From Octopus sinensis (Eukaryota), in assembly GCF_006345805.1 (NCBI RefSeq), contig NC_043005.1, positions 53,010,001 through 53,074,000 on the forward strand: DNA of 64,000 bases, given 5' to 3'. A model generated the notes under the pieces. That model ran no database searches. It worked only from the letters and a program-made list of their open reading frames with translations, and had not been told where the DNA came from. A program made the translations under genes and the position numbers. Numbering within the stretch: position 1 is the first letter of the stretch; every line of letters begins with the position of its first letter. This document shows positions 3,729 through 59,149 of this stretch, in pieces.

Positions 3729-3774
3729 GATACCTGACGAAGACTGGAGGGTATATCAGCTGAAACGTTGTGTT
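3729..3774 (+). ncRNA. Minimal type I hammerhead (Penelope pLTR-like fragment, ~3720-3855)
   Basis: GAUAC-CUGACGA-AG(A)CUGG-agggtata-UCAGCU-GAAAC-GU-U-GUGUU. Confidence 0.6.
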
Positions 3775-5504
3775 AGCAACAAACAAGATGAGGGCAAATA
3801 TCTCCCCAAATGTAAATAATGTACATAATTCCTCATCTCTTAAATATAGAACAATAATAACGTTAATAAAATGTCAAATGTTTTTGATGGGTGATTTTTG
3901 GCCCACCATCTACGTACATACATACATATATATATATATACGTACTAATGTATCCACGTATATATATATATATATATATATATATATATATATATATATA
4001 TATATATATATATGTGCGTGTGTGTATGTATATATGTATGTCTATGTGTATGTATGTATCTTGCAAGCTCAAAAAATATGATATAAACGAGGCAGAAAGA
4101 ATAAAGACATGGAGGACAAAAAACAAGACCAACGGAGAAGAAGCAACAGAAAAAATAGAGACAAAGACAGCAGAATGAAAACAGACTACAATATATTTAA
4201 ATTAGAAAAGAAAATATAATTTCTATCTTTCAACTTTTTCTCCCGAGGAAATGCGTAATTCATCACACTTAAATTTATCATGAATGTTAATTACGACGTA
4301 ATTTTATAAATCACCATGTTTATAAAGAAGTTGTCGAAAACAGTTATATATACATATATATATATGCGTGTATATGTGTGTGTGTGTGTGTGTGTGTGTG
4401 TGCGTGTGGTGTGTGTGTGTGTGTGTGTGTGTGCGTATGTGTGTGCGCGTGCGCAGGTAGGTGTTATAAAGAGCTCTTTGTGCCTATCCCGTATCCTGTG
4501 GTACAAATAACTTCACTTAACACTGCTGTTAGATTAAAATATAATTCAGATGTAGAGAAGTTCAATCAAAGGGAATGAATGCACGACTCCGAATGTATTA
4601 GATCTTGGAAATAGTTTCACTAGAAATTAGGCAACAAATAGTACCGATCATGATAATAACCGTATAAAAGACGGGAAAAGTGAAAATGATAATATTGACA
4701 CTAATAATAATAATAATAATGATGATAATAATAATAATAATAATAATAATAATAATAATATAATAATAATGATGATGATGATGATGGTGATAATAGTAAT
4801 AATAATGATGATGATAATAGTAGTAGTAATAATAATAATAATAATAATAATAATAATAATAGTAATAATAATAATAATAATAATAATGATATTTTAAAAG
4901 AATTGACATAACTACTCACAAAAGTAAATATGAAGAGCAAGTGGCGATTGCAATAGATATTTTATTGGTTTGAACGATATTTCGACAACTTGCCCGTCTT
5001 CGACGAGTTTAATATGAAAAGTGATATATAGAAATTCAAAATTATAGAAATACAAATTCAAAAATTTGAACGAAAGCAACCTGCGTTCCCACGTTGACAG
5101 AATGACATATTCACTCTTCAATTTTCAAGTTTACAACTAGCAAAAAGAAAAAGAAAGGGTTGTAATTCATTTCTAATTTATTTATCACTTTATCATCTCT
5201 CAAATCTGAGAGTAGAAGACTGTGTCTATTTTGAATAAAGAACAAGAGTGAGTTGACAACTCATGGCTAGGTATGGTCATAAATATTATCATAGGTATTC
5301 CTTTTCCCCAAGAGAAAGGTAATAACAAATTAGGAAGAGTCAATATTCATACATAAAAACAAAGTTATTTTATTCCACAGGAGTAGCGAATATAGAAAAA
5401 CAAGTTGAAAATGCACTGGGATTTGGTTATATTTTATATATTTTAATTTCTAAAGAATTAAGAAGATTCACAGATTTACCTGATCTGCATGAGTTCTTTT
5501 TTTA

Positions 5505-5995
5505 TTCTTTTACTCTTTTACATGTTTCAGTCTACGGCCATGCTGGAGCACCGTATTTAGTCGAACGAATCCTCCCCAGAACTTATTCTTTGTAAGCCTA
5601 GTACATCTTCTATCGTTTTATTATGCCGAACCTCTAAGTTACTGAGACGTAAAGACATCAACATCGGTTGTCAAGCGACAGTGGAGGTAGTGGTGGTGAT
5701 GGTGGAGGGCAACAAAGATACGCAAATATATCTATCATAAATATATACATATATGTACACAGGCACACACACACACACGCAGACACACACATATATATAT
5801 ATGTGTGTGTATGTATGTATGTATATATACATACGACGAGATTTCAGTTTCCATCTACTAAAGTCACTCACCAGGCTTTGACGGCCCGAGGTTGTACGAG
5901 AAGGCACTTGCCCAAGGTGCCACACAGTGGGACTGATCCCGGAACTATGTGGTTGTGAAGTATGCTTCTTACCACACAGCCACGCCTGCGCCTAT
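5505..5995 (-). mobile_element. tRNA-derived SINE family B with internal microsatellite
   Basis: Head ggcgcaggcgtggctgtgtggtaag..gtcccactgtgtggcaccttgggcaagtg and tail ggtgctccagcatggcc..ctgaaac, read on the minus strand. Many copies in the window. Confidence 0.88.
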
Positions 5996-6945
5996 ATGTA
6001 TGTATGCATGTATGTATGTATGTATGTATGTATGTATGTATGTATGTATGTATGTACGTACGTACGTATGTATGTATGTATTTTTTTATATACATATACA
6101 TACATATATGATATATATTATATATATATATATATATTATATATATATATATATATATATTGTTATATTTCGGAATGGTCATATTGCCAGTTTAGCCAAT
6201 AAATATATATATATTATATAATATATATATATATATATATATATATATTAGCCATCGTGTAATTGTTTTGAATTCTTCTTCTCTCAGAGAAGCAGCTGAT
6301 TTCTAAAAATGACCACAACGTTGGATTTGGACACTAACAATAATTGAAACAGCGAAAGATCTTGTATATTTACACCGTTTTACTTATAAAACGAATTTTC
6401 GCAACTTTTTGTCTTTACTGACTGTTTGTATGATGATGATGAATGATGATGATGATAAAAATAACGATAATGATAATAATAATAATAATACTAATGATGT
6501 TGATAATAATAATGATAATGATAATGATAATAATAATATTAATAACGATAATAATAGTAATAATAATAATAAAATTGTGATAATTACAGTGGAAATATAT
6601 ATTTTATTTATGTTGAATAAGTATGTATGTATCTGCGTGTGTGTGTATATATACATATCTGTGTGTGTATATGTGGGTGTATAAGTTTATTTCACAAATG
6701 CATTCATCATGTGCGTGCATATTGAATACTTTTACTTAGTTTCATGACAAAATACTAAACATGCATATATATTCATATACACGGACAGACATATAACACA
6801 CGCGCATGGTAACACACATGTTCGCATATATATGAATGTTTTATATTTGACATGCCTTATTATACACACACAACACACACACACACACATATATATATAT
6901 ATATAATATATTATATATATATATATATATATATATATATATATA

Positions 6946-7397
6946 ACGATATAGTGTATATTTATACGCATAAGGAATCCACACTTGGGGTGAGATTCAA
7001 CACATTAGATAACCACACAAATAATAGAATTCCTTATGTGTATATTTATACACATAAGGAATCCACACTTTATTGTAGCCAACGGTAGGACTGCGATTGC
7101 GCAGAAAAATTTGAAAAGTTACTTCGTATAAACAGTAGACAGGTAGCAATCCTTGTCTTCTGTCTATATGTTTTAACCCCAGGTTGACCTCGCCGATGAA
7201 GATCAGACCTTGCGAGTTACCCCGACTTGCTAAAAGAAGATCAGAAACCAATTTGGTCCGGGGTATTAAATGGTAAATGTTTTTCATTTCCAAATTTATT
7301 CCTATCGAATTTTATCTATTATTTTTGTGGTTATCTAATGTGTTGAATCTCACCCTAAGTGTGGATTCCTTATGTGTATAAATATACACTATATCGT
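6946..7397 (+). mobile_element. Hammerhead-bearing non-coding element with inverted copy of its 3' end (Penelope-like architecture)
   Basis: 6946-7028 is the reverse complement of 7315-7397. A further fold-back fragment lies at 7029-7070. A (TA)n tract abuts the left end. Confidence 0.65.
7187..7264 (+). ncRNA. Type I hammerhead ribozyme (U4C variant)
   Basis: Stem I ACCUCG/CGGGGU; core CCGAUGA; stem II GAUC/GAUC with inner GCGAGU/ACUUGC hairpin; GAAA; stem III ACCA-AUU-UGGU; triplet GUC (7258). Confidence 0.72.
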
Positions 7398-7659
7398 ATA
7401 ACTAATATATAGTATCTTGACTAATTTTTTTGCACGTTAGACCATTGGAAATGTAAATTTTGATTGAATATTTAAATTTAATTAAATCCATTTCCCTTTT
7501 GATATGATCAAACATTATATTATATATATTATATATATATATATATATATATATATATATATATATATATACATACAATATATAATATATATTATATATA
7601 CATACATGTATATAATTTACATATATATGTACAATATGCGTGTGTATATGTATATATAT

Positions 7660-57213: not shown

Positions 57214-57247
57214 TTTAGCGTTTCGAGCAGATGCTCTTCTTCGGAAA
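57214..57247 (-). ncRNA. Degenerate minimal hammerhead (related Penelope-like tail)
   Basis: Minus strand UUU-CCGAAGA-A-GAGC-aucu-GCUC-GAAAC-GC-U-AAA. U16.1 is mutated, so probably inactive. Confidence 0.4.
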
Positions 57248-58243
57248 TAGAGGAATGTCCAATAGAAGGGAAGACGGAAGAAGAAAATCGCCAACGATTC
57301 ACATGTGGTTACAATTTGAAATGACCGTATGTATCTTATTATCAGAGATTAATTTTTCTCTATTTTGGTTGTAACATAACGCAGATTTTCGAATAACATT
57401 ATGGTTAATATTATTTTCACCGAGACCCTTCATCTTTATTCATTAGCCACTATTTTCTGCTGTCATTTTCCATCTCCCTTCTTCCATCTTTCCCTCTCTT
57501 GTTTAATCTCTCTCTCTCTCCCTCTCACTTTTCTTTTGGTTCCTCATTGCTTTGTCTGTTTCCTCTTCCTGTATTCTCCGCAATTTCTTCTCTTATAGAA
57601 TGCCCTTTTCATTTCCCATAATTCTACTTACAACGCTTGCTTGATTTTGTTTTTAACAGCTACGCTTTAAATCACTTCATTTTTCACTGCTCCCCAGACA
57701 CTCTTCTTTACACCGTGTTCAAGTAATGTCCGAAATTACTTATTTTACTCACAATATTACACCTCTACGACACTGTCCTTGCTTGTCTCTTTTGTTTTAT
57801 CCCAGTCGAAATTCACTGTTTAGCATCCTTTTTTATTTTGTCATTTGTCAGGGTTATATCAGCCGAAAATATCTTGTATTTTCCGTATGTTAATATTGTT
57901 ATGTCGAAGCTCCTAATATTTGATTGCATATATTAATCTATTATATATGTATGTATGTATATATGTATGTATGTATGTTTGTATGTATGTATGTATGTAT
58001 GTATGTATGTATGTATGTATGTATGCATGCATGTATGTATGCATATATATATGCATGTATGTATGCATGTATGGTTGTATGTATGAATGTAAATCTATCT
58101 ATCTATCTATCTATCTATCTATCTATTTCTCTCTCTCTCTCTCTCTTTCTCTCTCTCTCTCTCACACACACACACACACACATATATATATATATATTAT
58201 ATATATATATATATATATATATATATATATATATATATATACA

Positions 58244-58446
58244 CAGTAATGCCTCGACTATCGCGAGTGTTACGCACCAAAGCCTCCGACAAAAATAATT
58301 AAAACCTAAAATTATAAATACCTATCGGCCGCAGAAACCCGGATATACTGAAGAGTCCGCGATATAAATTTACATATATTAACAAGAAAAATCCACATTG
58401 TACTGAGTGCTCGATAGGTGAACCGTGATATGGTAAGGGATTGCTA
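58244..58446. mobile_element. Tigger/pogo-like MITE
   Basis: cagtaatgcctcgactatcgcg ... ccgtgatatggtaagggattgcta: imperfect CAGT-type TIRs in a TA context. Confidence 0.55.
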
Positions 58447-58511
58447 TATAGAGAAATATATATATTCATACATTATATCTGTAAAATTAATATGTGACAA
58501 TTATTCGGCCA

Positions 58512-58567
58512 GATAACTGAAGAGGTGGCGGCGTGGGTTTCCGTCCCACGAAACTCGGAGTTTTATC
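58512..58567 (+). ncRNA. Type I hammerhead ribozyme with canonical core on a long rod stem (58476-58607)
   Basis: Stem I GAUAA/UUAUC; CUGAAGA; stem II GUGG(C)GGCG...CGUC-CCAC; GAAA; stem III ACUC-G-GAGU; triplet GUU (58562). Stem I extends ~35 bp. Confidence 0.82.
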
Positions 58568-59149
58568 ATGGCTACCGAATAATTGTAACGTATTAATTTT
58601 ACAGATAAATTCCTCTATTTACATAATATCGAGGTCTCTTTCATTCTTTTGGTGTCTTACCATTTCTATCAATATTTATACATTATATATATATATATAT
58701 ATATATATATATATATATATATATATATACATATGTTCTCCTATAGTTATCGCCTCAATGTCCATTTTTTTTACAGTTAAAGTCTTGTGTCATGACACAT
58801 TTCCCTGGTAGAAAATTTGTTTACATGTACAGGAAAGTTGAAAGCTATTAAAGCTGTTGTTAAAATGTTCCAAAATCGGAGCAAAATGCGCGCACGCACA
58901 CGCACACACACACACACACACACACACACACACACACCACACACACACACAAGCACACATACATATAAATATTACGAACAAGTCGATGCTTCACTCCATT
59001 TCTACTCTGTGTTTTAAATAAGATTACACACACCACATGCACACACGTACTTAGACATGTACACGAGCACACGTAAACACATACATACACACGCATAAAC
59101 ACAAACACACAAACATTCCCACACACACATGGGCTCTCAGAGGAGTGAA

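Follow-up and report, generated by a model that had tools for sequence, protein, structure and literature searches.

A stretch of 64,000 nucleotides (nt) from the genome of Octopus sinensis (NCBI RefSeq assembly GCF_006345805.1, contig NC_043005.1, positions 53,010,001 to 53,074,000 of the forward strand; hereafter the window) contains nine type I hammerhead ribozyme motifs, which sequence reading and structural scans assign to eight families, A to H. These motifs are very probably hammerheads located in the pseudo-long terminal repeats (pseudo-LTRs) of Penelope-like elements (PLEs), with families C, D and F being the ends of coding elements and the non-coding families A, B, E and G likely being copied in trans by proteins that combine a reverse transcriptase (RT) with a GIY-YIG endonuclease (EN). 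The sought core was CUGANGA...GAAA...UH with stems I-III in type I order. An initial annotation of the window had listed eight motifs in this order; all of them were located, those at 41730 and 57214 on the minus strand, and the ninth (23965-24050, plus strand), which that list lacks, is fully canonical and the best formed. The motif at 57214 had been taken for a third copy of those at 32675 and 43609; alignments place it in a separate sister family, H. The central proposal is correct in that type I hammerhead motifs occur in numerous retroelement families that are independent of one another and are associated with Penelope-like RT/GIY-YIG proteins.

The link to a coding parent is most complete for family F. 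A GIY-YIG fragment upstream of one F copy led to a large, young coding family, and F sequence matches 23 of 31 loci with a PLE endonuclease at 77-90% identity, 21 times in sense orientation downstream of the endonuclease and twice as inverted arms. In two loci (L166, L167), a frame of 717 amino acids (aa) with RT and EN lies between two hammerhead-bearing F repeats, the pseudo-LTRs. This parent has only one open reading frame (ORF) and measures less than 3 kb; it combines an RT with a C-terminal GIY-YIG domain and presents RWK, DKT, CxCX5C and CxxC/CxH motifs and no CCHH. A Pfam scan of the 717-aa protein returned no family, and its homologues carry PF26215/PF28514. Judged by all of these motifs, the pseudo-LTRs and the (TA)n context, the F parent reads as a Hydra-clade PLE. 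The young intact subfamily (L166, L167, L153, L154, L260) has a U4C core and older copies have the canonical U4, a switch which points either to a variant that is still functional or to amplification that can do without cleavage. For family D, continuous homology covers about 2 kb of AT-rich sequence upstream and then reaches an endonuclease of the Hydra type (L320, L323, L321/L379); the D parent is assigned to the Hydra type from this endonuclease fragment. A second Hydra-type family (L172-L181, e.g. L173:1544-3724, plus strand) has intact frames of 725-728 aa and its own hammerhead, whose stem III equals that of F; in the copies inspected, the cysteines of the linker have in part disappeared.

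Tracing family C upstream led to a further endonuclease. In 22 of 24 loci, a sense match to C lies downstream of such a GIY-YIG endonuclease, at a distance of 300-1190 nt. One of the C loci (L375) comprises an RT frame, a CSRPRCRTC linker (CxxxxCxxC) and a CCHH-type EN, for which Pfam gives weak RVT_1 and GIY-YIG matches (E 0.01 and 0.02). With an RT, a CX2-5CxxC linker, a C-terminal CCHH GIY-YIG domain and a hammerhead in the 3' repeat, the C parent has the features of a Neptune-type PLE. Matches to C beside other Neptune elements turned out to be independent insertions. Family H is similar to C; its upstream part continues for at least 1 kb into CA-rich sequence, with no coding frame within the retrieved flanks. 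A sense repeat of the element's own 3' part was detected in one of 20 loci each for C and F and in none of 15 each for D and H. Other Neptune-type elements (L195, L196, L200, L272-L283) have covariant cores, mostly U3-A8, with L200 reading as A3-U8. Neither the second Hydra family nor the other Neptune families have a coding piece in the window; they carry hammerheads of their own. Families C, D and F are 5'-truncated ends of protein-coding PLEs rather than ORF-less retrozymes: the statement that none of the elements has an ORF is true of the window copies only, and elsewhere these three run upstream into RT/GIY-YIG coding sequence. The search for Penelope elements sharing 3' ends, which the initial annotation had recommended, linked C, D and F to coding sequence and, among the loci examined, gave no coding partner for A, B, E, G or H.

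The insertions share a characteristic footprint, which was read from alignments of 15-20 copies per family. A (TA)4 tract lies within 15 nt of the 3' end in 13 of 20 copies of F, 15 of 20 of C, 13 of 20 of G and 13 of 15 of H (random background 5.4%), and within 130 nt in 17 of 20 copies of E, 14 of 15 of B and 13 of 15 of D (random background 14.2%). The proposed nesting in (TA)n tracts holds for these seven families and fails for A, for which no copy (0/15) has (TA)4 within 15 nt of its 3' end. Many copies across the families carry an inverted partial copy on the 5' side, and two alternative 3' ends occur, spaced by about 60 nt in E, 105 in B, 20 in D, 75 in F and 30 in A. Inverted arms, tails and 5' truncation are described as marks of PLEs by Craig et al. 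(2021; PMC8557442). Among the copies of five families tested, 0 of 85 start within 3 nt of the predicted cut, with many copies just running to the end of the query; the template would therefore cross the cut site, either as an uncut multimer or as a ligated circle.

Family A differs in its upstream part, in which the hammerhead-bearing tail is preceded by an (AAT)n spacer and a 73-nt head. Within this head there are A- and B-box-like sequences. Among loci that were not retrieved via A, 13 of 16 unbiased heads are linked to an A tail, and a head precedes 13 of 15 complete tails. The best match of the head among 15 distinct tRNAs is the genome's tRNA-Arg(TCT), with a score of 63 versus at most 43 in 200 shuffles; the Rfam tRNA model gives only 10.9 bits (E 8.5), and ARAGORN with default settings detects no tRNA in the head. 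Pooling the loci retrieved via A with the remaining loci gives 23 insertions whose 3' end is full; 13 of them are two-armed, and in 11 of these 13 the short arm ends about 30 nt early, at 137-150 versus 169-172. Duplications of 9-15 nt flank 10 of the 23 full insertions versus 0.22 in mismatched flanks, and A insertions have no poly(A) tail. No coding element sharing the tail of A was present among the loci examined, and three variant A-like motifs were ordinary A copies. Taken together, family A reads as a tRNA-derived short interspersed nuclear element (SINE) head joined to a PLE footprint. The head and tail found in the window probably belong to a single copy that nested repeats have interrupted. 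In several loci (window 2885-3415 and 3480-3715; L385, L083), further repeats lie within or next to the (AAT)n spacer, including a piece within the spacer of L385 that resembles a long interspersed nuclear element (LINE), and the spacer thus seems to be an insertion target. Three octopus tRNA-derived SINEs were reportedly described by Ohshima and Okada in 1994, and family A may equal one of them; OR1 and OR2 are cited as CORE-SINEs.

Families B, E and G are built from short repeating units. The 3' part of E recurs upstream at a period of 359-363 nt in 15 of 20 loci, that of G at 442-455 nt in 4 of 20, two of which (L075/L076) are one three-unit array with a 528-nt period, and that of B, when scored by script, at 478-484 nt in 2 of 15 loci; the same B junction can also be seen in L107, L110 and at the end of the window copy. 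Most sampled copies of B and E comprise 1.x units, and those of E are very young (97-99% identical). These units lack an ORF, are joined head to tail, measure a few hundred nt and each bear a type I hammerhead, the make-up by which retrozymes are recognized. The suggestion that the window elements are ORF-less parasites forming circular RNAs (circRNAs) might be retained for these three families only, since a short repeating unit is restricted to them; C, D and F are read as coding PLE ends and A as a tRNA-headed SINE.

It is nearly an even question, leaning slightly to the negative, whether B, E and G are true non-LTR retrozymes, in which transcribed tandems would be cut by two hammerheads and ligated into circles of 360-480 nt that a PLE protein reverse-transcribes. 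This model refines the reading of PLE-associated hammerheads and does not compete with PLE involvement. Monomer lengths that are fixed and fall within the published range of metazoan retrozymes, the three-unit G array, insertions that pass the cut site unbroken and the circular RNAs known in coral, mussel and axolotl (PMC7229834) agree with it, as does the folding of five monomers as circles, with z values of -4.1 to -7.1 relative to shuffles, compared with -1.7 for one piece of an F pseudo-LTR. Family D was dropped as a control for this folding, as it contains an inverted repeat and is invalid for the purpose. Identical DNA would, however, arise from an uncut multimer or from template jumping, the PLE of anole uses unprocessed RNA in vitro and no RNA-seq ends were detected at its cut site (PMC11167929), eight of nine Xenopus dimers did not cleave (bioRxiv 10.64898/2026.07.22.740005), and family B carries U4C. 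Assembled contigs of four presumed RNA runs cover E and the coding F element, though contigs cannot reveal ends, strand or circles. Other families contain further retrozyme-like arrays (L266:2850-5300; L247:9224-9830; G000:C1:257506-258667), with six hammerheads spaced by 535 nt within two inverted arms and with hammerhead pairs or triplets at about 546 and 560 nt.

That all families might merely be 3' stubs of coding PLEs, with the non-coding units arising from local rearrangements and the parents having been missed, is improbable. Families C, D and F did seem ORF-less until they were traced upstream, H continues into CA-rich sequence like C, and the genome searches score only the top 40-150 candidates. 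Against this, the same junction and period recur in 15 independent E loci and periods repeat in G and B, which leaves no room for an ORF in the copied unit, and family A has a constant tRNA-like head and no ORF; for E and A, the stubs-only account is already contradicted by these patterns.

The motifs also stand out quantitatively in this genome of 2.72 Gb. A first descriptor was too strict, and a third was widened to fit the window families; since it was tuned on these, its window count is circular, and 60 evenly placed 10-kb stretches (600 kb) that had not been used in building it served as an independent test. The comparison with dinucleotide-shuffled controls, recommended at the outset, gave a motif density far above the shuffles: 29 motifs at a score of at least 22 in the 600-kb sample versus 0.12 in eight shuffled sets, and, in the second scan of the window, four motifs at a score of at least 20 versus 0.13 in 60 local shuffles, none of which reached four. 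The 29 motifs represent about 19-20 insertions and many further families. In the 600-kb sample, family A occurs 12 times, H eight, C seven, F twice and G once, and B, D and E do not occur. Their density of about 48 motifs/Mb extrapolates roughly to 1.3 x 10^5 genome-wide; the window, which is dense in microsatellites, has six motifs at a score of at least 22, about twice the average density. Across the whole genome, an exact minimal pattern has 32,142 matches versus 35 for the reversed pattern (900-fold), and an exact pattern with an 8-nt stem III has 21,106 versus 1,774 (12-fold). Together, these two tight patterns give at least about 51,000 motifs, and the very large genome-wide number that had been anticipated is thus supported by both approaches, the sampling pointing to roughly 10^5. 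One 40-mer of family A alone has 1,018 matches versus 0 for its control, and each motif region matched 40 of 40 scored candidates (the best 40 of 1,021-5,934 first-look candidates).

With the four inner positions of the 8-nt stem III pattern left free, hand counts of the first 100 listed matches gave 67 perfect palindromes (about 6 expected) and 85 when G-U pairs were allowed (about 14 expected). Among 140 copies, the free core position N7 is the most variable, with 16 non-majority letters versus 1-7 elsewhere. Neither the palindromes nor the variable N7 was requested by the search, and both read as signs of selection. It is next to impossible that a relaxed descriptor matched the motifs by mere chance in DNA rich in AT and in repeats: single motifs fold no better than shuffles, Rfam detects none of them and two weaker window matches failed (26053, minus strand, has no homologue among the retrieved loci, and 27688, plus strand, is a drifted copy of another repeat), but chance would not account for the excess in independent DNA, the 900-fold and 12-fold genome-wide ratios, the unrequested palindromes or the fixed position of the motif within terminal repeats of coding elements.

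The family alignments reveal a canonical core in the majorities of A, D, older F and G, a covariant U3-A8 core in E, fixed U4C in B and H, and fixed A6U in C. Stem II is damaged in the window copy of A, and the A15.1-U16.1 pair is broken in that of H. Several observations weigh against the interpretation of the motifs as hammerheads of PLE pseudo-LTRs. U4C and A6C are described as lowering hammerhead activity (PMC3088659), and the fixed variants (U4C in B, H and young F; A6U in C) would be expected to act in the same direction. No single motif out-folds its own shuffles (z -0.2 to -1.7). The covariation check gave a mixed outcome: across families, stem sequences differ and stem III stays palindromic, while within F, in which 97.8% of positions in 25 distinct motifs are paired, covariation shows no excess over shuffles (35 and 194 of 500). 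Cut linear RNAs do not look like the template, as judged from the starts of the 85 copies. Among 41 Hydra loci, 42 GIY-YIG loci and extended flanks, no coding partner shares sequence with A, B, E, G or H, and the trans-mobilization of the non-coding families consequently rests on their insertion footprints. Finally, the parents were assigned to clades by motifs and not by a tree. Rfam returned no hits for the window at gathering thresholds, including the stretch 58400-58680, and no hammerhead among the 150 of 356 E-value matches listed, which are microsatellite matches to miRNA models.

Table 1. Positions of the hammerhead motifs and associated features in the window.
Family	Feature	Positions	Strand	Description
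A	Head	2635-2695	+	tRNA-like; B box intact, 5' part missing
A	(AAT)n/(CTA)n spacer	2698-2883	+	Follows the tRNA-like head
A	Tail of putative tRNA-headed SINE	3716-3853	+	Holds minimal hammerhead
A	Hammerhead	3729-3774	+	Core CUGACGA, stem III ACGU, predicted cut after 3769
B	Inverted 5' arm	6946-7070	-	Copy of the element's own 3' part, adjoins (TA)n
B	Element	7068-7520	+	Non-coding unit of ~480 nt, head-to-tail; (TA)n at end
B	Hammerhead	7187-7264	+	Core CCGAUGA (U4C), stem III ACCAAUUUGGU, predicted cut after 7258
G	Element	23856-24175	+	Non-coding unit of 442-455 nt
G	Hammerhead	23965-24050	+	8-bp stem I, core CUGAAGA, stem III ACUAUGCAUAGU, predicted cut after 24042
C	Element	32600-32797	+	Putative 3' end of coding Neptune-type PLE; (TA)n at end
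C	Minimal hammerhead	32675-32710	+	Core CUGUCGA (A6U), predicted cut after 32706
C, second copy	Element	43563-43735	+	Flanked by two (TA)n tracts
C, second copy	Minimal hammerhead	43609-43644	+	Core CUGUGGA, predicted cut after 43640
D	Element	41620-41855	-	Putative 3' end of Hydra-type PLE with AT-rich 3' untranslated region of ~2 kb
D	Hammerhead	41819-41730	-	Core CUGAAGA, long stem II, stem III ACGAUCGU in most copies, damaged in window
E	Inverted 5' arm	54979-55235	-	Includes 60-nt tail, adjoins (TA)n
E	Element	55232-55625	+	Young non-coding unit of 359-363 nt, head-to-tail
E	Hammerhead	55412-55452	+	Core UUGAUAA (U3-A8 covariant), stem III ACAUGU, predicted cut after 55447
H	Element	57110-57325	-	Sister of family C; parent element not found in flanks examined
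H	Minimal hammerhead	57247-57214	-	Core CCGAAGA; U16.1 lost in window copy
F	Element	58507-58670	+	Putative solo pseudo-LTR of coding Hydra-clade PLE; (TA)n at end
F	Hammerhead	58512-58567	+	Core CUGAAGA, stem III ACUCGGAGU, predicted cut after 58562
F	Short inverted piece	58476-58508	inverted	Beside the pseudo-LTR

The proposed mechanism applies the following steps. First, an RNA spanning the pseudo-LTR would be transcribed, for family A likely by RNA polymerase III (Pol III) from the tRNA head. Next, a PLE endonuclease would nick (TA)n or, for A, an ordinary site at which a 9-15 bp duplication is left; the target bias and the duplications are observed, and the enzyme is presumed. Reverse transcription would then begin at either of two fixed internal sites downstream of the hammerhead, which may explain the two observed 3' ends 20-105 nt apart. 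Here, the presumed cause is taken from a PLE for which nicking of AT-rich DNA, two internal RT start sites and unprocessed RNA as the main template are reported (PMC11167929). As seen in the sequences, reverse transcription would usually stop early and often add an inverted second arm, and hammerhead-bearing stubs therefore outnumber full elements. For B, E and G, copying would run past one unit on an uncut multimer or a ligated circle and produce the observed head-to-tail partial tandems. Finally, the ribozyme is predicted to process precursor RNAs, probably as dimers via the palindromic stem III or with the help of protein, and most genomic copies would be decaying passengers. Cleavage of dimers through a palindromic stem III, with low activity, is described by Cervera and de la Pena (2014; PMC4209133), and PLE hammerhead cleavage is reported to be protein-assisted and dispensable in vitro (PMC11167929). 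A more ambitious picture is somewhat less likely than not: several Penelope clades with hammerheads on the order of 10^5, Hydra and Neptune elements, young and intact, driving the circRNA-forming retrozymes B, E and G into (TA)n, and a tRNA SINE, A, of tens of thousands of copies that is mobilized by a Penelope-type enzyme and not by a LINE.

Several of these elements resemble known systems. Hydra-clade PLEs, as described in PMC8557442, are like the F parent in their size of less than 3 kb, one ORF, RWK, DKT, CxCX5C and CxxC/CxH motifs, absence of CCHH, pseudo-LTR hammerhead and (TA)n target; they have the same endonuclease type as the D parent and the 5' truncation, inverted arms and tails described above. 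Their list includes Hydra-1_Obim of Octopus bimaculoides (2,507 bp, (TA)n target, 'no pLTR'), from which F, compared by description, differs in its clear pseudo-LTRs. Unlike the published case, this genome has no fewer than three Hydra families, namely F, D and one with 727-aa frames that lies outside the window, with many near-identical frames. Neptune PLEs (PMC4209133) share with the C parent the RT, a CX4CxxC linker and a CCHH-type GIY-YIG domain, and, among motif traits, the minimal stem III ACGU, one additional base following A9, and the pair G10.1-C11.1. The same paper describes a U3-A8 core as in family E and thousands of single motifs from truncated PLEs; differences are the fixed A6U in family C and the 32,142 exact minimal matches, compared with about 2,000-9,000 for schistosome, coelacanth and Xenopus, which were obtained with other descriptors.

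B, E and G, at 360-480 nt, resemble metazoan non-LTR retrozymes (PMC7229834; bioRxiv 10.64898/2026.07.22.740005) in being ORF-less type I hammerhead units that are head-to-tail, structured and tied to PLEs. They differ in being mostly dispersed 1.x-unit and two-armed insertions in (TA)n instead of long arrays. The PLE origin of animal retrozymes is published (bioRxiv 10.64898/2026.07.22.740005); the words 'octopus' and 'cephalopod' are absent from the main texts of both sources, and no mollusc appears in that of the latter. The schistosome elements Sm-alpha and Sj-alpha (reviewed in PMC6765202) likewise join a tRNA-like Pol III head to a hammerhead. Family A is distinguished from them by its minimal PLE-type hammerhead, its (AAT)n spacer, its two 3' ends about 30 nt apart and its mostly dispersed, two-armed insertions with 9-15 bp duplications.

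Pseudo-LTR hammerheads, (TA)n targeting including that of an octopus Hydra element, PLE-derived retrozymes and schistosome hammerhead SINEs are already in print, and much of the 'zoo' in the window is expected debris of coding PLEs, which is known. The presumption that these families are uncatalogued in cephalopods stands in part: such PLEs are partly catalogued, and the listing of Hydra-1_Obim with its (TA)n target in the supplement of PMC8557442 removes much of the novelty by the initial annotation's own standard. Neither a cephalopod catalogue of the present families nor a PLE-mobilized tRNA SINE was found in the open full-text literature, a scope that leaves subscription papers, Repbase, Dfam and bioRxiv supplements outside. 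Most of the elements are of known kinds; the tRNA-headed family A is the most unusual, and the leads most worth following are this SINE of PLE type and the number of motifs (about 10^5). If true, family A would widen the range of elements parasitized by SINEs from LINEs to PLEs. As a test system, this genome combines intact, near-identical Hydra-clade RT/EN frames with very young non-coding units, and the role of the PLE hammerhead and the notion of animal retrozymes as PLE-copied circles are therefore directly testable. For giant squid, 235 Hammerhead_1 hits were reported (PMC6962438). Since Rfam misses all nine motifs of the window, ribozyme loads are probably under-counted in cephalopod annotations.

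Additional features of the window include an abundant repeat with a 184-nt period, present as copies and partial tandems at 1157-1519, 24934-25231, 34126-34356, 36846-37114, 53655-54073 and 63789-64000, in which the window scans revealed no hammerhead apart from a drifted chance match. A 496-nt tandem duplication with 97% identity (21701-22714) and a near-exact duplication with a spacing of about 938 nt (45760-46885) are either recent or assembly artefacts. On the plus strand, 44103-45197 holds an apparently intact 365-aa transposase frame of the Mos1/mariner type (Pfam Transposase_1, E 7e-23).

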